Source: an uncultured Candidatus Poseidoniales archaeon (lineage in GTDB: Archaea > Thermoplasmatota > Poseidoniia > Poseidoniales > Thalassarchaeaceae). Taken from it: 64,000 bases of DNA. The stretch is from assembly GCA_964556195.1 (NCBI GenBank), contig CAZKVK010000001.1, positions 1,180 to 65,179 of the forward strand. Reading direction: 5' to 3'. The notes under the pieces are model-generated. The model was not told the origin of the DNA, ran no database searches, and saw only the letters and a list, made by a program, of their open reading frames with translations. Of the stretch, positions 36,010 through 61,155 are shown piece by piece (the first letter of the stretch is position 1; each line of letters begins with the position of its first letter). A program made the position numbers and the translations under genes.

Positions 36010-36188
36010 TCATCAGCGCTCTTGTTTGACTTATGACGGTGATGGAGCGTCGTTCGGACACTAACCCTGTACAATTGCCCGACGGCTCCGCCGTCGCGTA
36101 CGTGAGAGAGGTGTGAATTGTGGACGATTGGGGCTATCATTTGGGGTTGCATTGAAGACCTTACGGCCGCGCCCTGCAAACTGGTTTT

Positions 36189-36989: not shown

Positions 36990-37007
36990 AGTATTTGACA
37001 TTGCAAA

Positions 37008-39560: not shown

Positions 39561-39594
39561 TCAAGAAATTAACCGAACGGCGGACTATATTGCT

Positions 39595-42500
39595 TCATTC
39601 ACTAGTATGCTCAGGATCGGGAACCCAATCTTCTTTTTCCGGATCCCAAAGCCAACCGGGGTGCTCATCACTTCTTACTAATTCTCCCGTTGATTCCACT
39701 GTTGCTGATTCATCGGCTTCGTCATCTTCATCTTCTTCGAATGAGATTACTCCACTAAAGAAAAGTGTGGCGCACAGTAATGCGATTATAACCGCAACAA
39801 TCGCAACAATCATCACAGGACTGATTCCACCATCGCTAGATGGAGGTGAAATCTCATCTCCCTGAATTGATTCGGAGCCGCTAATGGAAAATACTGGAGA
39901 AACTGGCTTACTTACCATGGCTCCAGGAATGCCAAGTTCCCATGTAGAATCCTCAAGTACTACTGTAGAATTGACCTGAATCCCACCCAATGTAACCCTA
40001 ACGGTCTTTCCGGGTAAGCCAGAACCACTGAAGGTGATTAACTCATCATCACTGGCAGTGGTTTGATCAGGTGGACCAACATAGAATTCGATTGGAACAA
40101 CATTGAAAGAAACGGGTGTTGAAATCTCCTTTGAACCAAAGGGGTCGGTGGCAAGGAAAATCACATTACTTAGTGACCAAGTATCCATGTCTTCGTTGTA
40201 GAATCCCATCGACTTCGGGTCGTAGAATGCGACACCATCAATACCTATGTTAATTACTAATCCAAACTCATCATCTGATGATCTGGCAGGATCATCGTAA
40301 ACAGACAGAATAAGGGAATTTACCCCATCTACGTCATCGAAGAATTCTAGTAAATCAATTTCGATAGTTGTGCAAGGGTTCTGTGAAGTTGTATCGAATT
40401 CGCAGTATAGAGTAATCTCACTTTGCCAATTCGTTCCATCAAAGGTTGGTCTACTATTGTCTGCATCGGGTGGATTATCTGCAACGACCTGAACTTCCAT
40501 CCAATCGCTGTACTCATAACCATCATAGGACCTTGCTTTGATGAGATATTGCATATTATGAGTCAACAATCTAGAGTCCCATTCCATCTCCCAATAACCA
40601 TTAGACTCGATTTCTGTGACGGCTCCTGAAAAGACATTGATATATCCATTTGAGACGTCAATAACCTCAACATCAACACGAGTTATTTCTCCATCATTAT
40701 CTCGAGCTACCCCGCTAATTATTGATTTCTCATCAACTGCATATATCTGACCGCTTTGAGGAGAAGTTAGACTGACAAATGGGCGAGAGTTTTGGTTGTC
40801 GATTTGCAAGTCTATCACCACTACTTCGCACTCATCAATATATCCCTTGCAGAAGTCGGAATCTGAGGCCCATATTGTGAATGTGTAGGTGGCTAATTCA
40901 CGTGGAAGCCCGCTGAAATCCCACGTCCAAGACCATTCCGTGCCACCTTCTGTAGAAGTTATGACATTGTAGTTTGGGCCTTCTATTTTGAAATAGATTT
41001 GGTCAATATCGGTTCCACAGTCGAAAGGACATCCGTAGGGGTCATGTGCACTTCCTTCGAATGTTACAGTACCATCAGAGTGAGTTGATTGTGTACTCGG
41101 AGAAGTAACAGAGATTGTTGGAGCCTCGGTATTGACCTTAATTGATCTAGTTAGGATTGGGGAATACTCGAGACCATCAAAGGCCCTGAATTCGAAAGTA
41201 TAGTCTCCTTCCTGCCGTCCTGACATATCATATTCGTAATACCAACTACTGAATGGGTGATTATTTCGAGACACATATCCTGGTTCTGCTCCACTTGAGT
41301 CTATGGCGTATCCAGTAGCACTCCAATCACTGGTAAATGGGTCTTTGATTTCTACAGCATGGACAAATCCTTTCTGATCCCATTGGGCTAACTCGTCTGT
41401 TTCGTAAATTCCGGCCCATGTACCATCATAAGCGGAACCGGTTAGATTGACCACTCTTCTGAAAGAATCCCCGTCATTTTGAATTACAGATACACTAGGT
41501 GGATCATTATCTAAGAAAAGAGTGTCTTGGTATGTCGTATCTGAAAGAGTGAACTCTCCGCTATCAATACCATATCCAAAGCGATATGCAGTGTATCTGT
41601 AGAGAGATAATTCTCTAGTTCCGGCAGAATAATCGCAGTCAGGGTCATCTGTATCGAGTAGTAAGTCTCCGTCATTATCCTCTCCATCGGAACAGGAATC
41701 TTCGTATTCATCATCAGCGAAACCATCAGGATTATCGCCTCCGGCTAAGCCTCTGAAATCAAGGTGGAAATTAGAGGCAAGAGAGAACCACGGTGTGTAT
41801 CCATCCGAGTCTGTCTCAAGGCTATAGAGGTCATTTCCAAGTGCATCTTCAATCAACACATTTGCATTTTCAACTCGTTGTCCATTGACGAGAGTTTGGA
41901 ATCTTACCAGTTCAGCCCTTTGTACCTGAACTGCATATTTGGTAGGTTGGGTTTCGATTTTTACCTTGGATAAATCCAAGTTTGAAAGATTAGAGAAGGT
42001 GAAAATAGTGGAGTTATTGTCCATATTTAGTGCTAGAGGGAAATTGTATGGAGTGAAGTCATCACAGGTAGCACAAGCCCTTACCTCGTGTGGTATGACT
42101 CCATTTTGCCAGCCATTCTGAACCCAGGCTTCTTGATCTGCCCATCTAAGCAAAACAGGATGTTCATCCGGTGGAGGGCTTGGGATATATTCCGATTGAA
42201 CGGTTACTGAAGACTTGGAGACGTTGTAAGTCACACTTACTCCATTCCATTCGTTATTGCTGAAGAATGCCAATGTTCCATATTGCTGTGAATCTGCAAA
42301 TCCACTATCATAATGTTGCAATATTGCACCGGTTCCTTGAACATTGAAGACATTTCTTCTAACATCTAGTAGAGCTCCTGTGGCCCTAATTCCATCCGCA
42401 TTTCCGCCTGCATTAATTTCGTTGTCTACAATTGTAGCTCCTGACCTGTGAGCCATGATGGCAGGGCAAGTGAAAGAACCACCCCACCACTTTTGGGAGG

Positions 42501-43830
42501 AGCATTCTCCACCTCCTGTTGATATCGAATTGTTAGCTAAGTAGAGTCGTGCGGGTGTAGGTGATGGGGCTTGAGTTCCATATTCGCCGGCAAGAATTGG
42601 TTCTCTAGCGGTTTCTGAAATCGTATTGTTTTCAGCGATTACATCAAAGCTTCCCAATAGCCAAAGACCGTTCCAACCACCAATTGGTCCAATCTCATTA
42701 TTGTGTATTTCAGCCTTGGAAGAATACACTGCAATTCCAGATCCTTCCGCTGCTCCTGCTAAGTTATTGTTGTGAATTCGAACATTCGCGCCAGAGTATG
42801 CGGTGATTGGAGTTCGTTCAGCTGTTGTGATGATATTATCTGCTATTTCTACATCGTACTCAGTATTGCCAATTGCCTTCAAGCTGTTGACATCGATACC
42901 ATTGCAGGTGACTGAAATAGTGGAATTAGTCACCTTACCAGCCGAGTTCCTGATACTTATTCCAAAATCCCCCCCAGTAACTTGGGAGTTTTGGACTCGA
43001 ATAAAGGTCTGAGATGCCCAAATAGCAGACCTACCTCCATCTCTATTTCCACAGCCCTTGTTGGTTGATTGGAAGCTTGCATCTTGGAAAATCATAGGAG
43101 AAATTGGAGTTCCGCCGCCATAAATTTGCACCGCTTGGCCAGTGACCCCACTCTCATCATCATTACCAGCAACATACTCTCCACCGATGAAAGTGGGTTG
43201 TGCCAAATTCGCTGCTAATACACTAGTTGTGTTGATATCTTCAAATCTCATATCTCGAAGAGTAGGGCTTGCTCCGTCTAGGATTAGTGCACCATATCGA
43301 TATTCGTACTCCAGCTGAATATAGAAGGGAATGCCCCATGCTCCATCAAAATGCATACTTCTCATGCCCGATTGTGACAAGTCCATTGTGTCGCGAAGAA
43401 TTATTCCTTCTCCACATGATGGATCTTCAATCCATATTTGTGAACTTCCAGACCCCAATCCATAGCATTCTCCAGTCGCATTTGGTACCGCAGGGTCTGA
43501 CCATGTAAGGGTAATCGGGTTTCCTGAAGCGGCATTGCCATTAGAACCACAGGAAGCGACTCCAGCACAGAGGTTGCCTCTAACATCGAGCATTGTACCA
43601 TTTGGAAATGAAATGTCAGTTCCGGGGTTGATAATTAGTTTAGCACCAGCGGCGATGGTAACGTCTCCAGTAAGTTGGTGTGTTCCACTCCATGTCTCAA
43701 TCCCAGTAATCGTTCCACTGGTAGTTTCATTATTCGCAGAGACTGGTATAGCGGGACCCACTAAAGCCAACATAGTGCTAGTCATCATTAGGAATACTAG
43801 GAACTGGCTTCTTGCTCGGGCACTCATCAT
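39595..43830 (-). CDS. Giant surface protein (1411 aa): signal peptide, right-handed parallel beta-helix region, Ig-like/fibronectin-like domains, C-terminal TM anchor with acidic Trp-containing tail
   Basis: Signal peptide FLVFLMMTSTMLALVGPAIPVSA. Repetitive N.(I/V)..N beta-helix rungs (NNTISETAREPI, NNSISTGGGE, NNEINAGGNADGI). Cys-bracketed acidic insert CSDGEDNDGDLLLDTDDPDC. C-terminal helix VMIVAIVAVIIALLCATLFF then EEDEDDEADES...HPGWLWDPEKEDWVPDPEHTSE. Confidence 0.85.
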   Translation of the reverse strand: MMSARARSQFLVFLMMTSTMLALVGPAIPVSANNETTSGTITGIETWSGTHQLTGDVTIAAGAKLIINPGTDISFPNGTMLDVRGNLCAGVASCGSNGNAASGNPITLTWSDPAVPNATGECYGLGSGSSQIWIEDPSCGEGIILRDTMDLSQSGMRSMHFDGAWGIPFYIQLEYEYRYGALILDGASPTLRDMRFEDINTTSVLAANLAQPTFIGGEYVAGNDDESGVTGQAVQIYGGGTPISPMIFQDASFQSTNKGCGNRDGGRSAIWASQTFIRVQNSQVTGGDFGISIRNSAGKVTNSTISVTCNGIDVNSLKAIGNTEYDVEIADNIITTAERTPITAYSGANVRIHNNNLAGAAEGSGIAVYSSKAEIHNNEIGPIGGWNGLWLLGSFDVIAENNTISETAREPILAGEYGTQAPSPTPARLYLANNSISTGGGECSSQKWWGGSFTCPAIMAHRSGATIVDNEINAGGNADGIRATGALLDVRRNVFNVQGTGAILQHYDSGFADSQQYGTLAFFSNNEWNGVSVTYNVSKSSVTVQSEYIPSPPPDEHPVLLRWADQEAWVQNGWQNGVIPHEVRACATCDDFTPYNFPLALNMDNNSTIFTFSNLSNLDLSKVKIETQPTKYAVQVQRAELVRFQTLVNGQRVENANVLIEDALGNDLYSLETDSDGYTPWFSLASNFHLDFRGLAGGDNPDGFADDEYEDSCSDGEDNDGDLLLDTDDPDCDYSAGTRELSLYRYTAYRFGYGIDSGEFTLSDTTYQDTLFLDNDPPSVSVIQNDGDSFRRVVNLTGSAYDGTWAGIYETDELAQWDQKGFVHAVEIKDPFTSDWSATGYAIDSSGAEPGYVSRNNHPFSSWYYEYDMSGRQEGDYTFEFRAFDGLEYSPILTRSIKVNTEAPTISVTSPSTQSTHSDGTVTFEGSAHDPYGCPFDCGTDIDQIYFKIEGPNYNVITSTEGGTEWSWTWDFSGLPRELATYTFTIWASDSDFCKGYIDECEVVVIDLQIDNQNSRPFVSLTSPQSGQIYAVDEKSIISGVARDNDGEITRVDVEVIDVSNGYINVFSGAVTEIESNGYWEMEWDSRLLTHNMQYLIKARSYDGYEYSDWMEVQVVADNPPDADNSRPTFDGTNWQSEITLYCEFDTTSQNPCTTIEIDLLEFFDDVDGVNSLILSVYDDPARSSDDEFGLVINIGIDGVAFYDPKSMGFYNEDMDTWSLSNVIFLATDPFGSKEISTPVSFNVVPIEFYVGPPDQTTASDDELITFSGSGLPGKTVRVTLGGIQVNSTVVLEDSTWELGIPGAMVSKPVSPVFSISGSESIQGDEISPPSSDGGISPVMIVAIVAVIIALLCATLFFSGVISFEEDEDDEADESATVESTGELVRSDEHPGWLWDPEKEDWVPDPEHTSE

Positions 43831-43924
43831 ATGTCTGGGGCATCTCGAACTGATTTAATCATAGGGCTTACAGGATTCTAACTAGCCGTAGGCTAGATTC
43901 AACAATTGTGGACATGATTTGATG

Positions 43925-45163
43925 TTAATTGTTCAAATTAAATTCAACTAAAATTTCTTCTAACCAAGCAACTGCATTCAATTCGCCGTAGCCTGATTTG
44001 TTCGAATGAATTGCATCAATTTGTTGCCCCTTTAGTGATGAATTTGCAAGAGCGCTCTTCACCTTAGTCATCTCCTCATCGTCGAATTTTCCATCTTCAC
44101 CTTGCATTTCATTTCCGTGAATTTGTAGAATTAATGCTAGAGCTCCGACTACAATAACCGTGGAGTCAGAGGTTCCGGTTGAATAGGCGTAAGGTGGTGT
44201 GATGTCCGTTGAGGCAGTTGAGAACATTCTAACACCAGGTGCTATAACTTCCGGCTTTTGATGAGGGAAAATCCTTTCTTCATTGTAATACGGGTCTAGC
44301 GCCGATCCTACAGAACTATTTGCCCAAATACGACCGTCGCTTGTTGAGGCTCCAACGGCGATTACCCTCGGAATATTTGCTGGAATTGATACGTCATTTA
44401 TGTTCGTCTTTTGCCCATTATTTCCGGCTGCTGCGACTACAAATATTCCTGCATCAAGCGCCTCATTTACGGCCTCGACGGTTTCGGATTGGAGGTTACT
44501 CATTCCACTTCCAGGTTCACCTCCCAAACTTAGACTAATGATATCAACGTCCTGAGAGATTCTACACCAACGGATTGCCAAAGCGACTCTATCTGACTGT
44601 CCTGCTTCTCCTTCTGGACCAAGAGCTAACGCTACCGAGAGCGAAACACTTGGAGCCGCTCCAACATAGGTGCCATTTGCAAATAATAAACCAGCCATCA
44701 ACGTTCCATGAAAATCTTCTCCAATATCTCGGATATTGTCGTTATCTCCAGCATAAAAATCTCGGAAACCAACTAAATTACCATTATCAAAATCTGGATG
44801 AGAGATATCAATTCCAGTGTCAACTATGCAAACATGCACTCCGTCGCCATAGTATCCCTGAGTTTGTAACTCCCTGATTCCTGAAGACTCATAGGCCCAT
44901 TCGGAATCGGGTAGATAGGATATCAATAATGGTTGAATAGATGACCAAGTCATCAACAATAGCACTGTACCGACTGCAAAACTGGCAGCACCCCATGGCC
45001 ATAGAAACTCCTTCATTGGCCCTAATGGCCAACGAAGCTCTCGCGCTTCTTGATCTGTCAAGCCATAATCAGAACCGGAATACCCAGGTGCTTCTGGGTC
45101 GACAGCGGTTAGCAACCGACTATCTTCGGGTTCAGGCATTAGCTCAAGATCTTCAAGAGTCAT
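43925..45163 (-). CDS. Membrane-anchored S8 subtilisin-like serine protease (type II topology: N-terminal cytoplasmic segment + TM + extracellular protease)
   Basis: Catalytic blocks HVCIVDTGID, EDFHGTLMAGLL, YSTGTSDSTVIVVGALAL. N-terminal helix AASFAVGTVLLLMTWSSI preceded by an acidic 55-aa segment. Confidence 0.8.
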   Translation of the reverse strand: MTLEDLELMPEPEDSRLLTAVDPEAPGYSGSDYGLTDQEARELRWPLGPMKEFLWPWGAASFAVGTVLLLMTWSSIQPLLISYLPDSEWAYESSGIRELQTQGYYGDGVHVCIVDTGIDISHPDFDNGNLVGFRDFYAGDNDNIRDIGEDFHGTLMAGLLFANGTYVGAAPSVSLSVALALGPEGEAGQSDRVALAIRWCRISQDVDIISLSLGGEPGSGMSNLQSETVEAVNEALDAGIFVVAAAGNNGQKTNINDVSIPANIPRVIAVGASTSDGRIWANSSVGSALDPYYNEERIFPHQKPEVIAPGVRMFSTASTDITPPYAYSTGTSDSTVIVVGALALILQIHGNEMQGEDGKFDDEEMTKVKSALANSSLKGQQIDAIHSNKSGYGELNAVAWLEEILVEFNLNN

Positions 45164-45246
45164 TCACCAATCACTAACTCATTCTGTTCAGTTTTCACCT
45201 ATGAGGTCTTGTCTTGAACAAGGCTGTAAAAGGAGTCTTGGTTACG

Positions 45247-48200
45247 TCAGAATGGCGCACCGGGCCTTCTAGATCCGGATCTTGTAAAGTACCATAACAC
45301 GAACACTAGAATAATTGCTAGAATTATACCAATTACAGTGGTTGGTGTAGAATCATCTACTGCTGGAGACTTGAGTGTGTATCTCTTGCTTAGTGTTTCA
45401 GGCTCTTCACCGAATTCTTGGTCTTCACTTGCAATTTCAAAGTCAAACCATTTCTGTGAAGACGACTCAAAGTCTGTCAAATCTATGTCAAGAAGGTAGG
45501 TTACAGAATCGCCGGATAACACATCTTGAGTGACACTGGAATTTACATCGGTTCCACGTACTGTTCCCACCAATTTGACCTTCTCAGCATCGACTAATCC
45601 AGTATTTTCAACAACTACAGTAAATGTGTGAATTGTTCCAAACAGCGGATCGCCATTTGAGTACACATTGGTAATCTCAATTATTGGTAGGGAAGTTTTC
45701 ACTCTAATTGCTATTGGAGGGTAGGTACCATTGTTCTTGTCAGTAACCGAGATAGTGATAGTGAAATCCTCATTTCCTGTTGCATTCTCAGGTGCGATTA
45801 CCTTGATTGTGTGGGTTGTATCAACGAATGCGCCCAAAGTGTGCGATGTGGCTCCTGTTCGTTCCCAGTCAGGAGGGAGTTGAGTATCATCAAATTCAAA
45901 TTCAAATCTCTCATCACCATTTCCACTATTTGAGAATAATAACTGAATAGGCAACTCTTCACCTGGCCTAACTCCGTAAACATCCAACAAAGGCTCTCTT
46001 AGTTCGAAATTGTGGAACTGTGGAATTCTAACAATTACCTCCTGTTCAAACTGATAGCCGTCTGCAGAAGTGAACCGGATATCTACTGTGTGACCATTAG
46101 TAAGAGATTGAGATATCGATTGATTGGCTGGAGTAACTCGGAGTAACAGGTTATCGTAGGTTGTGCTGTTGTTGCTGTCCAAACCAAATTCAAAGGTGAA
46201 AGGGTTAGTCCAATTTTCAATTGACGGATCCCATGCTTCAACCATCCAATATTGACCATCAGTACCTGCAACATTTCCTGATACGGTGTAACTTGAAACC
46301 GTCTCATGACCTAGATAATCAAGAGACATAGTGAATTCGATTGATTCGTATTCCCCCTCATCACCAAGTGTGGTTTGGACATCGAAATATTCACCTTCTT
46401 CGATTAGTACTCCGCCAGTGACGCCTACTATCGTTGCGTTGATTGTGTGGTTGGAAGTTCGGTCAAACAATAAGTCCTGAGTTACCGAGGCGGTTAGATC
46501 GGTTCCAGAACCTGGAACACTAATTGACTTAGTAGCTGTATATTCCATTACACGGCCCATCTGGTCGACGGAGAAGCCGGCTTCGACTTCGATCATGCCA
46601 CTTGGCATTAGAATTGAAATGTCGCCATCTTGGGTCAATATAGCATCCCATCGGACACCTGCTCCGGAGGACAGGGTGAATTCCACTTCGTCGATGATTT
46701 CCGAGCCCTCTAGGTCGATCTCAGAAGCATGATGCTGCGTTCCATTAAAGTCAAGCCATTGAGTTGAAAGATGTAGCCATCCACCATATACTAGATTGAT
46801 GTCTACATTTCCACCATCGCTAATGTCTGCCTCAATGCTTGCCATTCCAACAAGATTTGATTCTTCCAATGTCGCTCGTATAATCCAACGACCTGGTTCG
46901 ACAGAAGCGTTCCATTGACCGTTCCATACTCCATCTTCGTAGACCTTGTCAGGCACTACGTGCTCGCGTACCATACCATGTGTAGGAATCAAAATTAAAT
47001 CCACTTCTTCGCCGATACTGGCTAAATCAGAGTAGCTCACATTTCCAAAGATATTCACATATCCGGCTGTCAATTCTATTTCTACAGAGTTCGGATTGTA
47101 CATTGCTATGTTTTCATCTTCTTGCTCAAATCCTTCCCTAAAGGTCGAAACTTGCCAAGTTGTATCTGAAGGTACGAATACACTCCAATCACCAACAGAG
47201 TTAGTTACCTGAGTAATGTTATCTTGACCTTCACTGGTCAAGAAAATTTCCACATCTGGCACACCCTCTCCAACATCTGCGTCATCGTCATCATCTTGGT
47301 CCCAGAATATCGTTCCAGATAACTCATAGTGGGTTGATGAGATAATATCGATTAATTCATTCTCACCCGCAACGAGGCCCCCATCAACCAATTCAACCGA
47401 CTCAATGATGTATCGAGTCCTATCATCCGTCTGGTTAAGTTCAACATTCCATGAACCCGAAGTTATGGTTCCAGAGGTTTGGCCGGAACCATCGGTCATG
47501 TCAAGATATACCATCCCTAATCCATCATTAGAAGTTAATATCAATTCCATATCTTGCAGATAAACTCCATCTTCATCAGAAATTCTAACCGAGAATGATG
47601 CGAGTTCACTAGTTGAGATTGTATGTGCATCGTTAGCGTTTTGTTCGGAGACTGAGATCGTGGTTCGGACACCTTCGAAAACTCCGGTATCTGTTTGTAC
47701 AGAATCAATTACAACAATCCATTCTCCATCCGGTAAGTGGTCGATTAGTGTTCCATTCATGTCGGTCTTACGAGTGATTATTTCGCCACTATTTTCTGTA
47801 TCAATAAATCTAATCAACTGATCAACAAGTGGTCCGCCGCTTTCGTTAGTAAATGTCAGATCAACCTTCCATTCTGGGTCGAAGCCAATGCTTCTACTAA
47901 CTACTTCACCGCCGAAGCCAACCTCAAAGTAGGAGTCTCCAGTCATTATTCTAGTTCCGAAAAGGTCTCCTGCACGAGCGTCTGAAATTTCTACGTCAAT
48001 ACGATATGAGCCTGCCTCAACTGGCACCCTTGCGAAGCCATCTGAGATCCACTCGTCAGCATCTGCTTGTACATCTGTTGTCAATCCAGCAGTATTCTCC
48101 AAAGGAACAATAGAGAACCTATATTCTACGGACGTTCCATTAGTGACATCGTTATTTCCGTTATTATCGAGGAAGAAATCTATCTCGACAAATGAAGGGT

Positions 48201-51200
48201 CTGGGTAAAGGTACACCTCTACTGTGTCATTCTCACCATCTACCAGAAGAGTAGCTTCACTTGCATTCAGCCAATCTAAATCAGTAGTAAATGTCCAGTT
48301 ACCATGAGGTAGTATCGTGTTAAAAGAGCCTATTTGAGTGGCTTCTATATGCCAAACAGCATCCATGTCTTCATTCATTGCGAATACGGTAACTGGTTCC
48401 CAACCCTTTAGATTGGAAGTGTAGTAATTACCTAATCTATTGAGGTTTAGATTACCATTAACATCGTGTCCTGGACGGGCGATCATTGTGACATTGTCCA
48501 TTCCCTCCTCAACTGTGAATCGGGTGCCGTTGACAACATTGAGAACGTTACCAAAGACTGCAGCGTCAACAACGGAGCCGATTGGTAAAACGACATTGAA
48601 TACACCATTTGCGTCGGTTGTTTCGGTTGTTGTGAAATTCTCCCAGTGGAAAATTACCTGAGTAAAGTCGACAACCTCTGCCTGAATTGTTGAATCAGAT
48701 ACTTCCGAATTAGTTTCGTAAAAGACGGTTCCAACTACATTCATTGATTCTCTAAAGATGAAGGAGGTGGAAATGTCAGATTGAACATCAATTTGCTCCC
48801 ATAGTTGTTCGGAATCACTCAAGGTATGGCTTAGTATCCACTCACCTTGTGATAATTCAACTAAGTATTCACCCGTGTCATTATCGAATACAGCAAGTGC
48901 TGGGGCTGCCGAATTGTCAGCCCTAACCAAAGTCAAGTTTAGATTCTCCACGGGGGTTTGGGTTCCATTGGCAATTTGAGTTAATGAGAATCTCAAATCG
49001 TATACGGTAGGTATAGGATTAGGGAAGTCTACTTCCGAGTCCATATCTGCTTCAAATTCATGAGTTAGTTCTACCTCATTGAACCCGTCTTCATCCATGT
49101 CTAACTCAAAGATGTACTCTCCTGGAACAATCGGCCCGAACGTAAAGGAGCCGTTCTCATCGGCTGTTAATTGGCAAGGAGCATACATTACTTCACTGCA
49201 TTCCCCTAGAATGGTATCGTTTTCAGAATCAACTTGAATCATTGTCACGGAGCCTGACAAAGGATTGCCATCTACATCGCTTAATGTTCCAGAAATTAAT
49301 CCGCCTGCTACATCGATCGGATGGAGCGAAGGAACACCTTGGAACGGCACATTGAATCCATCACTAATTGCAATTCTAGTACCATCATTGAATATAACTG
49401 CTACATTGTAATTCCCAGGTATTGCATCGACTAGGTGGAAGGTTCCAGCTTGAACCATAGGGCCACTAAATTCACCCTCACCGGTGAATGTACCGGTTCC
49501 ATTTAGAGTACCGTAGGAATCTAGATTTTCATTACTGGCATCTACTGTGAAAACACCTGCTCCTGTTAGAGATGAACCATTATGTTCTTGCGAGAATGAA
49601 GATGTTCCATTGGATGTAAATCTACCAGTTGCATTAATTGCGCCCTCAATCAGGAAGTCACCATTTGCAAGGAAACAAACCGAGAAGTTCTCCGGCATTG
49701 TGCCATTTTCATTACAATCACCGTCGACAGTGTCGTCTCCATCAATCACTCCTGAAAGAGTTCCTCGACCTGAAAATTCACCTGATCCCGCTAGGCTATG
49801 GCCGTTCAGAATCATCTGAGTGTGTGTACCGACGAAATCGGTTACTATCATCAGGCCATTGCTGATGACCTCTCCTTCACCAGTAAAGGTCACTTGACCG
49901 ATTCCTTGGAAAGATAGGTCTGGGCCGTTGACACTTCCAGTAGATGTCTCTAGCATAATCGGTTGCATCTGAATTTCATCCCAAACAGGAGTCAATTCGA
50001 CAACAGCATCGGTAATTGCTTGACCGTCAAATGAATCTGCACCATTCCAAATTAATCGGCCGGTGGAGAATGATGGTTCTACGATAATATCCGCATTAAT
50101 CTCAATCTGACCATTGGAATGTCCTGCTTCACCGGAGACGTTTACGATGGTCTCGGATAGCCATTGGGACCCAGACACATTACCCAGTATACCCGTGATT
50201 AAGTTGACATTTCTTACTCCAGTAGTTGATTCGGTGGCTACGTCTTGTAACATACCGCCAGAACCACTGGCTAACTCATCACGAGCAGCTCTGATATCGG
50301 GTTCACCAAAGAAGGCTGAAACTCTAATCTTACCTGCTGGAACGGTGAATGAATAATCTCCGTTTTCATCGGCGTCTACCGTCCCTATTGGAACCCAGTA
50401 AGTTCTAGGATCTTGATCGGTGACGGTTCCGTTCTCATCGGCAACCTCTTCACCACTGAAAGCATCTCTTTCAATCAATATTCTAGCATTTGGAACAGGT
50501 CCTATTCCATCCAATTCAACAGTACCTTCTAGGGTTGCTCCGCTGTAATATTTGACGACCTTGACATTGGAATTTGCTCGACCAATTGCAGCATAGCCCC
50601 CATCGAAAATATCTGGTACACTGTTATTATCCTCATCAGGCGAATCGGAACCGTCATTGTACCAATTAGCTATGACGAAGTGATTCATCATCGCACCAGG
50701 AAGAGGGAAAGCATTCTCTAGTGGGGAACCTGGAGTTCCACTGATGGCCCATGTTGGTCCAGGTTGAGATGGATTAACCATTAGGCCCAAACTTGATGTT
50801 CCGTATCCAACGTAAATTCTAGCAACCATAGTTTCAAAGAAAGATTCTGTTTGTTGATATTGGATATCTACAAGTTGAATCATATCTGAAGAGTCTTCCA
50901 TCGCTCCAGATTGCTGCTTTACAACGTCAGACATATACTCCTGCTCATAGCGCTCAGCACTCATGAAGACAGTAGGGCGGTCCCCGCGCTGAGTTTCGTA
51001 AACCGATTCAATGTAATGATTCGGGTCCAGTCCAGAAAGGGTAGTTGGAGCGTAGAAAATTCCAGTGGTTTGACCTCGATGATAGCTTTGGTCAGCGTAA
51101 TATGCACCACCGAGAGGATACAACCTATCGTCTATTGCGAAGTAGCGAATCTCGTTGTTTCGTTCGATAGTTTCTCCCAAACTACCTCCGTAATCCTGAA

Positions 51201-54200
51201 CCTCATAAACAATCAGTGTAGAGATATCATGGTACAGTTCCACCAGTTCATCAAGAGTGAGTGCTGTAGTTAGGAAAGCACGGGCTAGACCCAACTTAGC
51301 GTTTGCTCGATGTAGGTTTGTAGAAACGTCATCATAACTTTCGATTAAGTCGGCAGTGTACCTATAACCGCCAATCTCGTAGTGGGTTGTAACCTCCTCA
51401 TAGGGTTGGCTAGAACCGCGGGCTTGGTTGAACATGGTCTTGGCCTCAGTCTCGTTAGTTGTTGCATTACCAACCTGCTTACCGTCTTTGAACACAAACC
51501 ACATTGGTTCTGTAGGAAGTCCATTTTCATCAAGGACAGTACCATGCATCAAATCTGTAGTAATTTTGAGGTTTCCACTAGTAAAGGAGGAATCTTGTGT
51601 CTCCTGTACATTTTGATAGATTAGAACCAAAGAACGATCGATTACGAATTGCTTTTGGCCAGGACCGAGTGATAGAATATCGTGGAATTCTTCAACTTGT
51701 TCAGGTGACAGGTGGGGTTCGATAACTTGAGAGAATTCGCTGCCAAATTCCCCATTTCCTGAGTACTGTCTGTCTCCCTGCGCTAGAGTAGCGATAAACA
51801 TCGCAAGTGTGTCTTCTTGGCCAGAAGAGAGTAACATAGCACCACTATGTGGAATTCCAGACTGGAAGTTATCAGCAACAGTGGGATGTTCTCCGGAATC
51901 CAATGCCTGGAAACCATAATCCCACCAAGATACGAATGCAGGTCTTTCACCAAATTTCTCGTCAGAATCTTGTTCTGAGAGCCATTCGTAGGCCATATTC
52001 CAACCTCCTCCATTAAATCCAGGACCGAAGGTTCCCATGTACCAGCAACCATTTCCACAGTTCGCGGTTGGGTTGTAGGAACTGCTATCCAGTAGCGATA
52101 GCCCTCCTACATCGTACCTCATTACATCTGGGGTAATATCGTAGATTACCTGATCAACATCTCCGGAGGCTGTTTCTCCCCTAGGGATACCTGAGTCGAC
52201 ACCATAGGTTGCGTGTTGAGTTGCTACGAGCATGAAAACTAACACTAGGGCTGGAATCATCGGTTTCTTTACACTAGCAGTTCTGACTGAGCGGAAGCGA
52301 GCACGTGGAGTACCAATTCCTGCACGACGCCATTCTTTGATGAACCCTGAGAAATCAGCCATCTTCCAAAGTGCGGCAATACCTATTGCACCAACAACAG
52401 CCATTGCTGGAGTTGCGTTGAAAATGAATCTTCCAGCGGTCCAAGCCATGTATGCGGCAATGAGAACCCATAGTCCAACTAATGACTGGCCTTGCTTTTC
52501 TTCTCGAGCACCTCGCCATAGAAGAATGAATGCATAACCTAGGGCAATCAAAGTAACAATCGGACCATAGGAAGCGAATAGAACACCTCTACTTGGTGCC
52601 TGGGCTTCTCCGATAGTTCCGAAAATCTTGTTCTTTGAGAAGTAAAAACCGCCAGTGAATAGGATATCCCAACCATCGTAATATTCAGCTGTTTGTAGAA
52701 TCCATAATGCCGATAGAATGCCGCCAAATAGTACGACACCGCTGCCCAATACCAAGAGCCAAGGTTTGTCTCGGAAGCTGGATGCTACCCAACCTAAGGC
52801 GATTGTGAATCCAACGATATAGAACATAGGCTGGAATCCACTTGGGGCCCACAATAGGTTGAGGCCTGGCCAAATGTAGAATGGTAATGGAATTAGGAAA
52901 GTTGTGAACATCATCTGTAAAGCCGCCGATGTCAGTGGAAGACTGTCACGTCGACGGAACATGTTGAGGACAATTTGGAAAGCAAATGCAAGGAATAGAA
53001 TTCCTGGTCCGTATACGAATCCCTTCCAACCTAGCGCCACTGTTGAGAAACTAATTCCAGCTAGTGTTGCGTAGGACATCATTATTGGATTACGATTCCA
53101 CATCTCTCGAATTCCGGCAATCAAATACAATGGATTCGCACTTGGATTGCGGAATACGCGTTCACTACTAATCTCGCCTAGTGCTCTAACCCAGAAGTAG
53201 AACGCTAGAGTTAGGAAAAGTAGGGCGAAAGAGTCGTGGTCGGCTAGACCAAATGTTGAGTGGCTAATGTGGCCAGGCATTAGTGCCATCAACCAAGCAG
53301 CGAAAATACCTGCCTGAGCGCTGTGAAGTCGATTTGCAATTCCTGCAACTGGTAGAACAATCAAAGCTCCAAAGACTGCAGGCAAACCTGCAACCGACCA
53401 CCAAACGACTTCTTCGGCCGGAATACCAGTTAGCCACTCAAGTGCAAGGCCCCCAAGGGCTAAACACCACGAGAACAGTGGGGGTCGAGGATTGATTCCA
53501 CCACTAGGGTACGAACGGTCAGCATCGAAAATGAAGTGCGCGTGCTCTGCTACGATGTAGTCTACAACCCTCTTCATGTACCAAGGGTCAGAACCTCCAG
53601 TCATATCCCAAAGTCCGGTTATATTCGCATTCATTGCTGGAAGTACATTCCAACCGGTCCTGATTAACAGACCAACAATAACTGCGGAGCCGACTAGGAT
53701 GGAATAGGAATTGTCCCTCCACCACAAGCGGAACTCACTTGGTTCACGGCGTGGAGCAATATCTCCGAACCTTCCACTAGATGCAAACATAATCGCTAGT
53801 ACATTCAACCAGAATGTGATGAAGAACCATGAGAATGCACCACCGAAATCATTGCCGGCAAGGAATTCTAATTGTTCTGGGAGATTGACTCCAATCTCAA
53901 CCAAGTGAGAAAGTGTGTAGATTAACCAATTTACTGCGACTACTGATCCAAGAACATGCCATCTTTCTGCACGACAGAAGGCTACAAACATCACTACCAT
54001 CGAGGTTACCAGAGCCCAAACTCCACCAAGGTAATGATGCTCCTCAAAAGTGGCGGCATCAGAAATACTTGCTAAGGAGTAGAGTGGAATCAAGTTCACA
54101 ATCAATAAGAATGATCCCGTGATGAGCAAATCGCGATGTTGTGAGAAATCAATCTTTGTTGGTAGCCTTTCAAACAGAGGCCCATTACCGCCATCGTAGA

Positions 54201-54780
54201 GAATTCCTCTGAACGCAATGGCGAGCAGAGTTCCTAGCATCATCGATGCAGTGTAGAAGGAAAAGAAATTAGCAGCTATACCAGCTCTTTGGACATCAAT
54301 GAGTAGATTCTGTAAGCTATCTCCCTCTGAGAGAGTCAATTCAGGCATTGAGGCCGCATAGGCTACAGAAACATGGAATCCTGCAACCATAGTGAATAGA
54401 ATCGTAGCTTCCTCGTTTCTATTGGATTTTACAAGAATTAATGTAGAAATCGCCATGAACGCAAAAGTTGTTGCAAGTATGGCGTCAATAAATCCAAGGA
54501 ATTCAAGAGCTATTGGAACGACTGCGAACAAGAGTGCGAATACCGGAGTTCGCTTTACGGGTGAATCATCAGGAACGGCAGATACCCAAATCCTTCCCAA
54601 AACAGCCGCGAGAGCGGCTGCTACGGGAAGGATAACCAACTTTCCTGTGTCAATCATCGCATCATCAGCGAGGGATGTAGCGGCGAAAAGTAACAGGATT
54701 AATCCTGCTAGTACCGCTGGTGCCGAAACCAGTCCATTGTACTGGCCGACGCCCCTCGTATTCCCGTTTTCGTAAGACAT
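45247..54780 (-). CDS. aglB: Giant (3177 aa) AglB/STT3-family N-oligosaccharyltransferase fused to an extra N-terminal polytopic membrane module and a ~2200-aa C-terminal array of Ig-like/CarboxypepD_reg-like/CARDB-like domains with its own C-terminal TM anchor
   Basis: EL1 motif GGSDPWYMKR (aa ~396-404, nt ~53578..53592). OST signature WWDYGFQ (nt 51913..51927, read directly), followed by DNFQSG. About 13 TM helices between the two motifs, plus roughly 8 more helices in the first 380 aa. C-terminal G.V.D..G.PL.G..V-type blocks (ISGTLSDVDGNPLSGSVTMIQV). Final helix VIGIILAIILVFVLWYF then TRSGSRRPGAPF. Confidence 0.85.
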   Translation of the reverse strand: MSYENGNTRGVGQYNGLVSAPAVLAGLILLLFAATSLADDAMIDTGKLVILPVAAALAAVLGRIWVSAVPDDSPVKRTPVFALLFAVVPIALEFLGFIDAILATTFAFMAISTLILVKSNRNEEATILFTMVAGFHVSVAYAASMPELTLSEGDSLQNLLIDVQRAGIAANFFSFYTASMMLGTLLAIAFRGILYDGGNGPLFERLPTKIDFSQHRDLLITGSFLLIVNLIPLYSLASISDAATFEEHHYLGGVWALVTSMVVMFVAFCRAERWHVLGSVVAVNWLIYTLSHLVEIGVNLPEQLEFLAGNDFGGAFSWFFITFWLNVLAIMFASSGRFGDIAPRREPSEFRLWWRDNSYSILVGSAVIVGLLIRTGWNVLPAMNANITGLWDMTGGSDPWYMKRVVDYIVAEHAHFIFDADRSYPSGGINPRPPLFSWCLALGGLALEWLTGIPAEEVVWWSVAGLPAVFGALIVLPVAGIANRLHSAQAGIFAAWLMALMPGHISHSTFGLADHDSFALLFLTLAFYFWVRALGEISSERVFRNPSANPLYLIAGIREMWNRNPIMMSYATLAGISFSTVALGWKGFVYGPGILFLAFAFQIVLNMFRRRDSLPLTSAALQMMFTTFLIPLPFYIWPGLNLLWAPSGFQPMFYIVGFTIALGWVASSFRDKPWLLVLGSGVVLFGGILSALWILQTAEYYDGWDILFTGGFYFSKNKIFGTIGEAQAPSRGVLFASYGPIVTLIALGYAFILLWRGAREEKQGQSLVGLWVLIAAYMAWTAGRFIFNATPAMAVVGAIGIAALWKMADFSGFIKEWRRAGIGTPRARFRSVRTASVKKPMIPALVLVFMLVATQHATYGVDSGIPRGETASGDVDQVIYDITPDVMRYDVGGLSLLDSSSYNPTANCGNGCWYMGTFGPGFNGGGWNMAYEWLSEQDSDEKFGERPAFVSWWDYGFQALDSGEHPTVADNFQSGIPHSGAMLLSSGQEDTLAMFIATLAQGDRQYSGNGEFGSEFSQVIEPHLSPEQVEEFHDILSLGPGQKQFVIDRSLVLIYQNVQETQDSSFTSGNLKITTDLMHGTVLDENGLPTEPMWFVFKDGKQVGNATTNETEAKTMFNQARGSSQPYEEVTTHYEIGGYRYTADLIESYDDVSTNLHRANAKLGLARAFLTTALTLDELVELYHDISTLIVYEVQDYGGSLGETIERNNEIRYFAIDDRLYPLGGAYYADQSYHRGQTTGIFYAPTTLSGLDPNHYIESVYETQRGDRPTVFMSAERYEQEYMSDVVKQQSGAMEDSSDMIQLVDIQYQQTESFFETMVARIYVGYGTSSLGLMVNPSQPGPTWAISGTPGSPLENAFPLPGAMMNHFVIANWYNDGSDSPDEDNNSVPDIFDGGYAAIGRANSNVKVVKYYSGATLEGTVELDGIGPVPNARILIERDAFSGEEVADENGTVTDQDPRTYWVPIGTVDADENGDYSFTVPAGKIRVSAFFGEPDIRAARDELASGSGGMLQDVATESTTGVRNVNLITGILGNVSGSQWLSETIVNVSGEAGHSNGQIEINADIIVEPSFSTGRLIWNGADSFDGQAITDAVVELTPVWDEIQMQPIMLETSTGSVNGPDLSFQGIGQVTFTGEGEVISNGLMIVTDFVGTHTQMILNGHSLAGSGEFSGRGTLSGVIDGDDTVDGDCNENGTMPENFSVCFLANGDFLIEGAINATGRFTSNGTSSFSQEHNGSSLTGAGVFTVDASNENLDSYGTLNGTGTFTGEGEFSGPMVQAGTFHLVDAIPGNYNVAVIFNDGTRIAISDGFNVPFQGVPSLHPIDVAGGLISGTLSDVDGNPLSGSVTMIQVDSENDTILGECSEVMYAPCQLTADENGSFTFGPIVPGEYIFELDMDEDGFNEVELTHEFEADMDSEVDFPNPIPTVYDLRFSLTQIANGTQTPVENLNLTLVRADNSAAPALAVFDNDTGEYLVELSQGEWILSHTLSDSEQLWEQIDVQSDISTSFIFRESMNVVGTVFYETNSEVSDSTIQAEVVDFTQVIFHWENFTTTETTDANGVFNVVLPIGSVVDAAVFGNVLNVVNGTRFTVEEGMDNVTMIARPGHDVNGNLNLNRLGNYYTSNLKGWEPVTVFAMNEDMDAVWHIEATQIGSFNTILPHGNWTFTTDLDWLNASEATLLVDGENDTVEVYLYPDPSFVEIDFFLDNNGNNDVTNGTSVEYRFSIVPLENTAGLTTDVQADADEWISDGFARVPVEAGSYRIDVEISDARAGDLFGTRIMTGDSYFEVGFGGEVVSRSIGFDPEWKVDLTFTNESGGPLVDQLIRFIDTENSGEIITRKTDMNGTLIDHLPDGEWIVVIDSVQTDTGVFEGVRTTISVSEQNANDAHTISTSELASFSVRISDEDGVYLQDMELILTSNDGLGMVYLDMTDGSGQTSGTITSGSWNVELNQTDDRTRYIIESVELVDGGLVAGENELIDIISSTHYELSGTIFWDQDDDDDADVGEGVPDVEIFLTSEGQDNITQVTNSVGDWSVFVPSDTTWQVSTFREGFEQEDENIAMYNPNSVEIELTAGYVNIFGNVSYSDLASIGEEVDLILIPTHGMVREHVVPDKVYEDGVWNGQWNASVEPGRWIIRATLEESNLVGMASIEADISDGGNVDINLVYGGWLHLSTQWLDFNGTQHHASEIDLEGSEIIDEVEFTLSSGAGVRWDAILTQDGDISILMPSGMIEVEAGFSVDQMGRVMEYTATKSISVPGSGTDLTASVTQDLLFDRTSNHTINATIVGVTGGVLIEEGEYFDVQTTLGDEGEYESIEFTMSLDYLGHETVSSYTVSGNVAGTDGQYWMVEAWDPSIENWTNPFTFEFGLDSNNSTTYDNLLLRVTPANQSISQSLTNGHTVDIRFTSADGYQFEQEVIVRIPQFHNFELREPLLDVYGVRPGEELPIQLLFSNSGNGDERFEFEFDDTQLPPDWERTGATSHTLGAFVDTTHTIKVIAPENATGNEDFTITISVTDKNNGTYPPIAIRVKTSLPIIEITNVYSNGDPLFGTIHTFTVVVENTGLVDAEKVKLVGTVRGTDVNSSVTQDVLSGDSVTYLLDIDLTDFESSSQKWFDFEIASEDQEFGEEPETLSKRYTLKSPAVDDSTPTTVIGIILAIILVFVLWYFTRSGSRRPGAPF

Positions 54781-54901
54781 TATTTCATCACCGTCTATTT
54801 GCAGCCTGAAGGCTCAGCGTCGCGGCGACCTAAACTTCTGTTATAACCATTCTCGGCATTTCCGCTACGTAGTAGCGAGCCAATCTTTCAACAAAACCCG
54901 C

Positions 54902-56170
54902 TCAAAGTGCCCGATATGCGATGTCTCTTCGATAATGTGAACCTTCTAGAGAGATTTCGTCAATAATGGCGTAAGCAGCGTCGACGGCGTTCGGAAGATC
55001 GGTTGCAACGGCGGTTGCAGATAGGACCCTCCCCCCACTTGAGAGAAGTTTTCCACCCTCATCACGAACCGTACCTGCTTGATGAACAAATGCGGTGATT
55101 TCTCCTTCTTCGATTCTAGAATCTTCGCCATTAATTTCCCTACCTGTTTTTGAGGAGCCAGGGTAACCTTCCGAAGCCAAAACCACAGTGACTGCGGACT
55201 TTCTTGAGAATATTGGCTCAAAACCGTCAATCCTGCCCTTGGCGGCTGCGAGAAGCATTTCTCCGAGGTCACTTTCTATCAACGGAATTGTGACTTGAGT
55301 TTCCGGATCGCCAAATCTAACATTATACTCAACAACGCTGGGAGCGCCTTCATCATCAATCATCAGCCCGACATATAGGACTCCACGATATGGAATTGGT
55401 TGATTCCGCAGATAGTGATGCATTGGACTGACAATTTCCTCAATTGCCCTTTGCCTTACTGATTCAGTGACTACAGGAGCAGGAGCATATGCACCCATAC
55501 CGCCAGTATTTGGTCCTGTATCGCCTTCTCCGACCCTTTTGTGATCTTGACTTGCTGGCAAGCAAATAAATCCCGATTCGTCCATAATCACCAGCATGGA
55601 AGCTTCCTCACCAGAGAGGAATTCTTCCAACAGAACAAAGCCATCTGTGAAAATAGAGTCTCTGATGAACCTGCTCGCCTCATCTACATCCTCAGTCACC
55701 ACTACACCCTTACCGGCGGCAAGAACATCTCGCTTGATTACCCACGGAGGGGAATAGCGAGAAAGAGCTGCGTCGATATCAGAATCTGACTTCAAAATCT
55801 GCACCCCGCCTGTTGGTATTCCTAATTCTGCCATTACTTGCTTTGCATGTAGTTTCGAACCTTCTAACTCAGCACCTTCTGAATGAGGTCCGAAACTAGG
55901 TATGCCCTTAGCCCTCAAGGAATCTGAAAGACCCGCCACCAAGGGGGCTTCTGGACCTACTACGACTAGGTCTGCAGATAACTCACTTGCAAGTTCAACA
56001 ACCGCATCAACATCGGTGGCTGAAATGTTGTGATTGGTTCCTAGCATTGAGGTTCCTGCATTACCAGGGCATGTGTGAATTGAATCAACGGAGGCGCTTT
56101 CCGATAGACCAATTGCAAGAGCGTGCTCCCTACCACCCCCTCCGACGATGAGCACCTTCATTCCGGCCAT
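54902..56170 (-). CDS. purD: phosphoribosylamine--glycine ligase
   Basis: MKVLIVGGGGREHALA N-terminus, ATP-grasp blocks, C-terminal GGRVL; start set at MAGMKVL. Confidence 0.85.
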   Translation of the reverse strand: MAGMKVLIVGGGGREHALAIGLSESASVDSIHTCPGNAGTSMLGTNHNISATDVDAVVELASELSADLVVVGPEAPLVAGLSDSLRAKGIPSFGPHSEGAELEGSKLHAKQVMAELGIPTGGVQILKSDSDIDAALSRYSPPWVIKRDVLAAGKGVVVTEDVDEASRFIRDSIFTDGFVLLEEFLSGEEASMLVIMDESGFICLPASQDHKRVGEGDTGPNTGGMGAYAPAPVVTESVRQRAIEEIVSPMHHYLRNQPIPYRGVLYVGLMIDDEGAPSVVEYNVRFGDPETQVTIPLIESDLGEMLLAAAKGRIDGFEPIFSRKSAVTVVLASEGYPGSSKTGREINGEDSRIEEGEITAFVHQAGTVRDEGGKLLSSGGRVLSATAVATDLPNAVDAAYAIIDEISLEGSHYRRDIAYRAL

Positions 56171-56248
56171 GTTGCATACGAATCGGTTAGGAAAATAATG
56201 CATTCCTATGGTCAATCTCTTGTACGAAAGAGAAAAACTACTCTTTCA

Positions 56249-56947
56249 TCAATATGGTACAGACTTCAATCCAAGTCGATAGCCTAGGATATTGAATGAG
56301 CGATGGATTATTGGAGTCAAAATAATTATTGCAATTATCGACGTTGCTAGATTCGAATGCATCATTACTTGGTCTCTGAAAAATATAGCCGCAGAGAGGA
56401 AGATGAAAATAGCAAATGGAAGGGTGTCTAGCAAAGGCGCCTTCGAACTAACTTCACCTTCCCTTTTCAGTCCTTGTCGGCGTTTTACAAATGAACCCGC
56501 CATATCGCCCAACATACAGGCGAATCCTAAGGTGAATCCTAGAACGAATGCAGCACCCCATTCGTTACCAATCCAAAACCAATCAGTTGAATCAGTAATC
56601 AATAATGGGTCGATGAATGGGAGGTCTTCTGGAGCGGTATTTCCTTCCCAAATGTAGTGTGAAATAATAACCAATATTCCAGAAAATATCCCTCCTCCAA
56701 AGAGACCCTCCCAAGACTTCCCGTCACCTAGAATCCTATTACCATCAGAATGTACCTTGCCGCCATCAATCTTGTGATTTTCATAGCCGAATTTATCAGG
56801 CATCCACTTCCCAAAAAGCATTGCTCCAGTATTGGCAAGATACGCAGGACCATAGAGAATTAGGACCGTTATGACATTCAATGCAAAATCACCTATGGTA
56901 GCATCAGGGAATGCAAGCGCCGCCACACTGGACATTGGTTCGGCCAT
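56249..56947 (-). CDS. carS: CDP-archaeol synthase (DUF46/CarS family)
   Basis: Polytopic 232-aa membrane protein with GDMAGSFVKRRQGLKREG...APLLDTLPF, resembling the CarS/CdsA cytidylyltransferase signature (GD..GSF.KRR.G..RG...P.LDQLDF). Confidence 0.7.
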   Translation of the reverse strand: MAEPMSSVAALAFPDATIGDFALNVITVLILYGPAYLANTGAMLFGKWMPDKFGYENHKIDGGKVHSDGNRILGDGKSWEGLFGGGIFSGILVIISHYIWEGNTAPEDLPFIDPLLITDSTDWFWIGNEWGAAFVLGFTLGFACMLGDMAGSFVKRRQGLKREGEVSSKAPLLDTLPFAIFIFLSAAIFFRDQVMMHSNLATSIIAIIILTPIIHRSFNILGYRLGLKSVPY

Positions 56948-61078: not shown

Positions 61079-61155
61079 TGGTGGACCCGACCGGATTTGA
61101 ACCGATGGCCACTCGGTTATGAGCCGAGCGCTCTAACCAACTGAGCTACGGGTCC
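61079..61155 (-). tRNA. tRNA with CAT anticodon (elongator Met, or Ile2 if C34 is modified), genomically encoded 3' CCA
   Basis: Minus-strand GGACCCGTAGCTCAGTTGGTTAGAGCGCTCGGCTCATAACCGAGTGGCCATCGGTTCAAATCCGGTCGGGTCCACCA folds as a cloverleaf. 7-bp acceptor stem GGACCCG/CGGGTCC, D-arm GCTC/GAGC, anticodon stem CTCGG/CCGAG with loop CTCATAA, T-loop TTCAAAT. G1:C72 argues against an initiator. Confidence 0.85.

Follow-up and report, generated by a model that had tools for sequence, protein, structure and literature searches.

The window analysed here, a 64,000-nucleotide stretch of contig CAZKVK010000001.1 (GenBank assembly GCA_964556195.1) from a Marine Group IIb archaeon (Thalassarchaeaceae, genus O1), encodes on its minus strand a protein of 3177 amino acids (aa) that very probably belongs to the STT3/AglB/PglB family of oligosaccharyltransferases (OSTs) and that we call giant AglB. 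As a first interpretation made from the letters alone (hereafter the sequence-only reading) had proposed, an AglB/STT3 enzyme is fused to an additional polytopic membrane module and to a giant ectodomain anchored at both ends; sequence, profile and fold comparisons agree on this. The protein is the product of a single real gene, giant aglB, which is conserved throughout the order Poseidoniales. On balance we favor the view that it is the N-oligosaccharyltransferase of Poseidoniales built into the cell-surface coat, and we infer the roles of its modules below.

The reality of the gene was supported by its conservation across independent data. The sequence-only reading had left room for a gene-fusion or assembly artefact, in which a normal aglB is joined to a surface-protein gene through contig chimerism or through a stop or frameshift that went unnoticed, and giant open reading frames (ORFs) in metagenomes are indeed sometimes chimeric. 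A search of 5.8e9 protein clusters nevertheless returned more than 120 that match giant AglB, drawn from independent ENA, JGI, NCBI, Tara and Logan assemblies, with uncut members of 3141-3338 aa at full query coverage and 44-100% identity. We then scanned genomes, one representative per species, and fetched the best 80 of 466 related stretches as loci (L001-L080; the gene with 10 kb per flank, 1.83 Mb in all). Every one of these 80 came from Poseidoniales (Marine Group II); they include the single-cell genomes AG-404-A19, AG-313-L18 and AG-319-P11 and the metagenome-assembled genomes (MAGs) LRMED-021 and LRMED-022, with contigs of 0.7 and 1.6 Mb, which we take from their names to be long-read assemblies. 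Among the closest relatives (85-89%) are MAGs that carry the labels MGIIb-O1 and Thalassarchaeum. Of the 80 loci, 52 showed an uninterrupted frame of over 3100 codons, and the remaining 28 were cut at contig ends, save two, L005 (DAMG01000079.1) and L056 (PBOL01000028.1), in which a frameshift or faulty assembly disrupts the giant gene internally, a point in favor of the artefact. An alignment of 26 members was collinear and nearly gap-free, and even the most divergent representatives, with 24-30% identity in the N-terminal module, were Poseidoniales proteins of 3155-3276 aa, shorter matches being annotated as partial. The survey of related genomes thus found the same collinear protein of 3.1-3.3 thousand aa in several hundred species-level genomes.

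Selection acts on the whole chain. Measured against 85-88% orthologues, the ratio of nonsynonymous to synonymous substitution rates (dN/dS) was 0.03 in the STT3 core, 0.05 in the periplasmic domain and 0.06-0.11 in the ectodomain, N-terminal module and C-terminus, values that are rough because dS is near saturation. All segments, domain junctions included, are under purifying selection. With the same collinear protein in so many clusters, single-cell genomes and LRMED MAGs, and with 52 open frames in a nearly indel-free alignment, we consider the chance of an artefact negligible. The G+C content of the ORF (0.43-0.47) is similar to that of the remainder of the window. Upstream, a 121-nt spacer separates the gene from purD, and by eye a TTATAA box lies ~65 nt and a GGTGA ~8 nt ahead of the ATG, features which suggest that giant aglB probably has its own start signals. 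A scan for bacterial-type promoters and terminators at the gene was uninformative, the host being an archaeon.

The assignment to the OST family was based on profiles, motifs and fold. The Pfam STT3 model (PF02516) matched aa 384-608 (E 2e-16, 60.9 bits, cutoff 24.5), and the NCBIfam model TIGR04154 (archaeo_STT3) matched aa 362-987 on model positions 3-572 (E 7e-48, 163.7 bits), so that the hidden Markov model search bore out the STT3 assignment of the sequence-only reading. When a profile of the family core was compared with the PDB, the best match was AglB-L of Archaeoglobus fulgidus (AfAglB; 3WAJ, E 3.8e-16), followed by STT3A/B and yeast Stt3. In the profile alignment with AfAglB, GGSDPWYMKR corresponds to GGNDPWYYYR (with the catalytic Asp, D47), GLADHD to GFNDHH (D161, H163) and WWDYG to WWDYG; the first and last of these had been read directly from the letters, and both were recovered at the positions in Table 1. 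The motif of the fifth external loop (EL5), TIGE, sits in the loop that links the hydrophobic segments at aa 675-699 and aa 734-756. This motif is TIXE in archaea and bacteria and SVSE in eukaryotes, and its Glu completes the catalytic site of AfAglB, where the described residue roles include metal binding by D161-x-H163 (PMC8342417). The STT3 core is the most constrained segment of the protein, with 60-90% identity and the lowest dN/dS.

The periplasmic domain resembles that of AglB as well. Its WWDYG region aligns to AfAglB and STT3A/B, a weak AglB_core-like match was obtained in Pfam, and a DNFQSG stretch is the counterpart of NPFQAG in AfAglB. A less conserved insertion of ~200 aa (aa ~1000-1200) is followed by an invariant RYFA(I/V)D.RLYPLGG block (aa 1212-1225); LPGAMMNHFV is also conserved, and the domain terminates in a variable, gap-prone acidic linker at aa ~1375-1400. 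An AlphaFold2 (AF2) model of aa 345-1420, built from a 31-sequence family alignment, was poor, with a predicted local distance difference test score (pLDDT) of 58.6 and a predicted template-modelling score (pTM) of 0.47. In a Foldseek search of the PDB with this model the 18 best matches were all OSTs (AfAglB at E 1e-9, human and yeast STT3, PglB), with probability 1.0 and E from 1e-9 to 9e-6 at TM-scores of just 0.4-0.5 and from a model with a pLDDT of 58.6; they were followed by the other GT-C enzymes DPY19, ALG9 and ArnT. The model sufficed to assign the STT3 fold but was too poor for active-site geometry. Family hydropathy and Foldseek together point to a GT-C fold of 13 transmembrane (TM) helices with an external globular domain.

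Some observations weigh against reading the protein as a working OST within a surface coat. The score of 163.7 bits is far under the 450-bit cutoff of TIGR04154, which makes the protein a relative of that subfamily and not a member, and marks it as a divergent AglB. The model of the catalytic part is of low confidence. The DK/MI motif was not located: the RYFA(I/V)D.RLYPLGG block matches neither DXXKXXX(M/I) nor MXXIXXX(I/V/W), and the candidate region, aa 1210-1250, was modelled at pLDDT <50. As for the coat, S-layer proteins are expected to evolve fast, and the near-constant length and low dN/dS found here differ from that expectation. The DK, DK-variant and MI motifs, which form the Ser/Thr pocket, can be assigned only with a three-dimensional structure (PMC3703281). 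The subfamily score, the missing motif and the weak model would also suit a pseudo-enzyme, an inactive STT3 that serves as the membrane anchor of a surface protein. Against this, the motifs for catalysis and sequon binding (D398, DHD, TI(G/A)E and WWDYG) do not vary anywhere in the order, and no part of the chain is under tighter constraint than the catalytic core, so that a dead enzyme kept as an anchor seems very improbable to us.

Giant AglB is predicted to be one polypeptide with 24 TM helices, comprising 10 extra helices, the 13 of the STT3 core and one at the C-terminus, arranged in four parts that end in the C-terminal anchor (Table 1). The 13 hydrophobic segments of OST type anticipated by the sequence-only reading were found at aa 359-858, and family hydropathy supported the topology of 10 and 13 helices plus the C-terminal one. 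Other estimates of that reading were revised in extent: the extra N-terminal membrane module is present and measures ~345 aa with 10 TM helices, not ~380 aa, and the ~2200 aa of beta-sandwich domains said to follow the core begin only after an AglB-type periplasmic domain of ~540 aa and span ~1740 aa. Since an even number of helices precedes the core, both the N-terminus and a K/R-rich loop (aa 339-358) would be cytoplasmic and EL1 outside. The catalytic domain and ectodomain are likewise predicted to lie outside, with the last helix bringing the basic tail back to the cytoplasm.

Table 1. Coordinates of giant aglB, of the parts and motifs of its product, and of selected neighboring genes in the window.
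Feature	Residues	Position (nt)	Strand	Remarks
Giant aglB ORF		45247..54780	-	ATG start, 3177 codons, uninterrupted
N-terminal 10-TM module	aa 1-345	53746..54780	-	Hydropathy and AF2
STT3/AglB TM core with EL1/EL2/EL5 catalytic loops	aa 346-860	52201..53745	-	13 TM helices
First DXD/EL1 motif, GGSDPWYMKR (D398)	aa 395-404	53569..53598	-	Identical in 52/52 complete orthologues
Second DXD/EL2 motif, D514-H-D516	D514-D516	53233..53241	-	Aligns with D161-H-H163 of AfAglB; in 52/52 complete orthologues
TIXE/EL5 motif, T722-I-G-E725	T722-E725	52606..52617	-	TIGE/TIAE in 51/52 orthologues; the 52nd masked (N bases)
WWDYG	aa 952-956	51913..51927	-	Identical in 52/52 orthologues
Periplasmic AglB-type catalytic domain	aa 861-1400	50581..52200	-	
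Giant acidic ectodomain	aa 1401-3140	45361..50580	-	
C-terminal TM anchor, tail and stop codon	aa 3141-3177	45247..45360	-	
S8 subtilase, membrane-anchored		43925..45163	-	Peptidase_S8, E 1.9e-37
Protein with signal peptide and near-C-terminal TM helix		39595..43830	-	
Protein with signal peptide and near-C-terminal TM helix		2251..7041	-	Second subtilase
Protein with signal peptide and near-C-terminal TM helix		11929..14748	+	
Protein with signal peptide and near-C-terminal TM helix		56871..58721	+	616-aa ORF
Protein with signal peptide and near-C-terminal TM helix		59991..60932	-	Choice-of-anchor T protein; NCBIfam NF041740, E 2e-79

The N-terminal module was found only together with the enzyme. 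Its 10 TM helices were obtained both from family hydropathy and from AF2, this time with a confident model (pLDDT 86.5, pTM 0.85), and conservation is highest in its last third (aa 250-345). The module has no Pfam match and no internal repeat, its model has no fold relative among the structures of the PDB, and a search of 1.84e9 representative proteins gave 36 matches, all of them giant AglB family members or fragments thereof. The possibility that it is a copy of the STT3 TM domain was rejected on comparison. Judged from these searches, the module appears specific to the giant AglB family and always to travel with the OST. It may act as a membrane-integral partner of the core that is particular to this lineage, and a role as a scaffold, as a docking site or in handling of the lipid carrier is conceivable.

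The ectodomain has the composition of a surface protein. Its domain matches all belong to beta-sandwich families typical of such proteins (prealbumin-type and CARDB/DUF11-type). The CarboxypepD_reg blocks noted in the sequence-only reading were verified with Pfam (E 1.4e-7 in the window protein; matches in 18 of 18 members, best E 6.6e-19), the CARDB-like blocks were weakly supported (E 0.4 here; two of 18 members pass 0.01), and scattered matches to SdrD_B, Big_1, SpaA, DUF11, CARDB and NPCBM_assoc accompany weak internal repeats with a period of ~90-110 aa. The region is strongly acidic (289 D+E vs 63 K+R; Lys 0.9%). N-X-S/T sequons are enriched about twofold in all 26 aligned members, with a median of 37 vs 18 expected by shuffling (z 4.7), and nine are kept in at least 21 of the 26; the 1400 residues N-terminal to the ectodomain hold just 5-12. 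At aa ~1600-1780 (~49440..49980, minus strand) lie Gly-rich G-x-G-x-F-x-G repeats, e.g. GIGQVTFTGEGEV, GSGEFSGRGTLSG and GTGTFTGEGEFSG, that have no family match and possibly form a beta-solenoid. One invariant Cys pair, C1689/C1702, falls within this region and another, C1861/C1869, ~80 residues downstream. When the ectodomain profile was compared with the PDB, the only match was human NOMO2 (9c7v_B) at a non-significant E of 0.055, and one family member matches Pfam NOMO1-like_9th. NOMO is likewise an array of CarboxypepD_reg-type beta-sandwiches with a single terminal TM helix, and the likeness is probably at the level of domain families only.

The chain ends, as predicted from the letters, in a TM helix (aa 3148-3166, hydropathy 2.63) and a basic tail, RSGSRRPGAPF, of which R3171, A3175, P3176 and F3177 are invariant in the 26-member alignment. 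All 52 complete orthologues terminate in Pro-Phe, as does each fragment extending to the true end of the gene (tail 45247..45279, minus strand); 49 of the 52 end in xAPF, usually RRPxAPF, and the others in RRPF or xQPF. No other ORF in the window or in the 1.83 Mb of related loci bears the RRPxAPF tail, and its interpretation as a shared sorting signal was rejected on that ground. Nor does giant AglB carry a PGF-CTERM signal, there being no PGF before the terminal TM helix (C-terminus ...DDSTPTTVIGIILAIILVFVLWYFTRSGSRRPGAPF), and none was present on its secreted neighbors in the window. Residues 2908-3021 match NF041740, the model of the nearby choice-of-anchor T protein, at E 6.6e-5, far under the cutoff. 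Derivation of the C-terminal region from that protein, which itself has a signal peptide and a C-terminal TM helix, was considered and rejected, the BLASTP match between them (E 0.071) resting on a CARDB-like N-x-G-N motif alone.

Giant aglB lies in a conserved surface-protein cluster. The gene order is carS, purD, giant aglB, S8 subtilase, a 1411-aa beta-helix/Big_7 protein, a STAND/TPR nucleoside triphosphatase, a metallo-beta-lactamase (MBL) hydrolase and a 1917-aa secreted protein, and this ~27-kb block (30256..56947) is kept in essentially all related loci with enough flank, down to 38-40% AglB identity. Of the neighbors listed in the sequence-only reading, carS and one S8 subtilase stand close by, together with purD, while the second subtilase proved to be 38 kb off. 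The adjacent subtilase lacks a signal peptide and has a 50-aa cytoplasmic N-terminal stretch followed by a signal-anchor TM helix (aa 53-81), from which it follows that its protease domain faces outward; it is a possible processing partner of giant AglB. The large secreted proteins of the window share a common design: a signal peptide, then a single TM helix that lies ~15-155 residues from the C-terminus, then a cytoplasmic tail. In the two longest proteins this tail is acidic and rich in Trp, e.g. ...HPGWLWDPEKEDWVPDPEHTSE.

This arrangement bears on whether the chain remains whole. If it were a polyprotein, it would be cut at the acidic linker at aa ~1375-1400, perhaps by the adjacent S8 subtilase, to yield an AglB of ordinary size and an anchored surface glycoprotein. 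The linker between the periplasmic domain and the first beta-sandwich is variable and gap-prone, the outward-facing protease lies directly downstream in 59 of 59 loci with enough flank, and the C-terminal TM-anchor design is shared with other surface proteins in the window. No conserved cleavage motif was seen, however, and no lineage was found to carry the fused parts as separate genes, an indication that covalent linkage, or at least translation as one chain, is important. We regard processing of this kind as unlikely.

The position of the gene within a surface-protein cluster would also suit a specialized paralogue, dedicated to the neighboring giant surface proteins or to itself, with a canonical AglB encoded elsewhere, and several archaea have two or three AglB paralogues (PMC3703281). 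Against this, giant aglB occurs in several hundred species-level genomes beside the housekeeping genes carS and purD, and Poseidoniales genomes are small. A transcript study names a single aglB for an O1 MAG in its supplement (PMC9723583). That aglB, which may or may not be the giant gene, was enriched in O1-active metatranscriptomes with a log2 fold change of 2.05 and an adjusted p of 0.062 (PMC9723583). A dedicated paralogue has, in our estimate, a low probability.

Other features of the window were also noted. The STAND/TPR cytoplasmic protein is the best conserved member of the block (96% in close relatives). As mechanically called, carS (56249..56947, minus strand) and the 616-aa ORF overlap head-to-head by 77 nt, and their true starts probably lie further in. 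A tRNA-Met (CAT) at 61079..61155 on the minus strand is the sole RNA gene in the window according to ARAGORN and Rfam.

Returning to the reading we favor, an OST built into the coat, the steps of catalysis are borrowed from knowledge of AglB, PglB and Stt3, of which the motifs are what is seen here. By analogy, the core would bind a dolichol-phosphate-linked glycan entering from the membrane, with a divalent cation held by D398, D514/D516 and E725. The N-X-S/T sequon of the acceptor would pair with TIGE, its +2 Ser/Thr against WWD, and the glycan would be moved en bloc to the Asn of exported proteins at the outer membrane face. With TM23 of the enzyme anchoring one end of the ectodomain and the C-terminal helix the other, this region must span the space next to the active site as a large arch or loop. 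Its acidic composition, number of sequons, beta-sandwich domains and genomic neighbors suggest a surface-coat glycoprotein in its own right, with its sugars probably attached by the enzyme of the same chain or of an adjacent copy. A length that hardly varies and a low dN/dS speak for a fixed structural function and not for a variable adhesin or decoy. The 1740-aa array may thus be a glycosylated arch, a structural part of the surface coat that would place the enzyme among its substrates, which would include the co-clustered C-terminally anchored giant proteins. An enzyme built into the surface lattice would fit the sequon enrichment, the acidity and the anchored surface-protein neighbors. A bolder version, which we consider a long shot, is a single-chain glycosylation-and-envelope machine in which the N-terminal module would carry out a lipid-carrier step, for instance flipping of the dolichol-linked glycan or recycling of dolichol phosphate, and the ectodomain would be a principal structural element of the envelope. 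We know of no protein firmly identified in Archaea for such a step. If this version were true, glycan supply, transfer and envelope assembly would be coupled in one polypeptide, a convergent prokaryotic counterpart of the multi-subunit eukaryotic OST.

Comparison with known systems places giant AglB apart in architecture. AfAglB-L (3WAJ, 5GMY and 7E9S; 868-875 aa) is its nearest solved relative by both profile and Foldseek, and the two have in common the 13-TM GT-C core, GG(S/N)DPWY, D-H-(D/H), TI(G/A)E, WWDYG and (D/N)(N/P)FQ(S/A)G. AfAglB-L lacks the N-terminal 10-TM module, the 1740-aa ectodomain and the C-terminal TM anchor, and its DK-variant motif (E613...K618) has no recognizable counterpart in giant AglB. 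Characterized AglBs have ~590 to 1100 residues and solved OST catalytic subunits 696-935; giant AglB is 3.6 times longer than AfAglB-L, in line with the three- to fourfold excess first estimated. TIGR04154, an archaeosortase A-associated euryarchaeal AglB family of 831 model positions, is the best family-level match, with the C-terminal third of the model unmatched. In eukaryotic OST (Stt3, Ost1/ribophorin I, Wbp1/OST48, Swp1/ribophorin II and Ost3/6, among others) the catalytic subunit is homologous, and around the Stt3 core lie ~11 additional TM helices as well as beta-sandwich domains on the lumenal side. These extras are separate subunits there and part of the same chain in giant AglB; the analogy is architectural only, and the representative-protein and PDB searches gave no sequence or fold homology of the N-terminal module to any OST subunit. 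C-terminally anchored surface glycoproteins such as the neighboring 1411-aa and 1596-aa proteins likewise consist of an acidic, sequon-rich beta-sandwich chain with one TM helix and a short tail, but they start with a signal peptide where giant AglB starts with a 23-TM enzyme.

In databases, giant AglB is labelled as a 'hypothetical protein', an 'STT3 domain-containing protein' or a 'glycotransferase'. We found no description of its architecture in the literature searched, and nothing there on the cell envelope of Poseidoniales, which rank with the most abundant archaea in surface seawater and are not known to include a cultured member. If giant AglB is the Poseidoniales OST, as is likely, N-glycosylation throughout this order would be carried out by an enzyme three to four times the size of any characterized AglB, Stt3 or PglB, with 11 extra TM helices and a sequon-marked surface domain. 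The ectodomain would be a candidate major component of the Marine Group II envelope, and likely a surface structure exposed to viruses or grazers. The N-terminal module adds a confidently modelled 10-TM domain without a relative among the solved structures of the PDB. As with eukaryotic OST, the protein offers a natural experiment in how an STT3 core is affected by accessory modules in the membrane and on its lumenal side. It would surprise specialists in archaeal glycosylation and envelopes, and it concerns a globally abundant, uncultured order.

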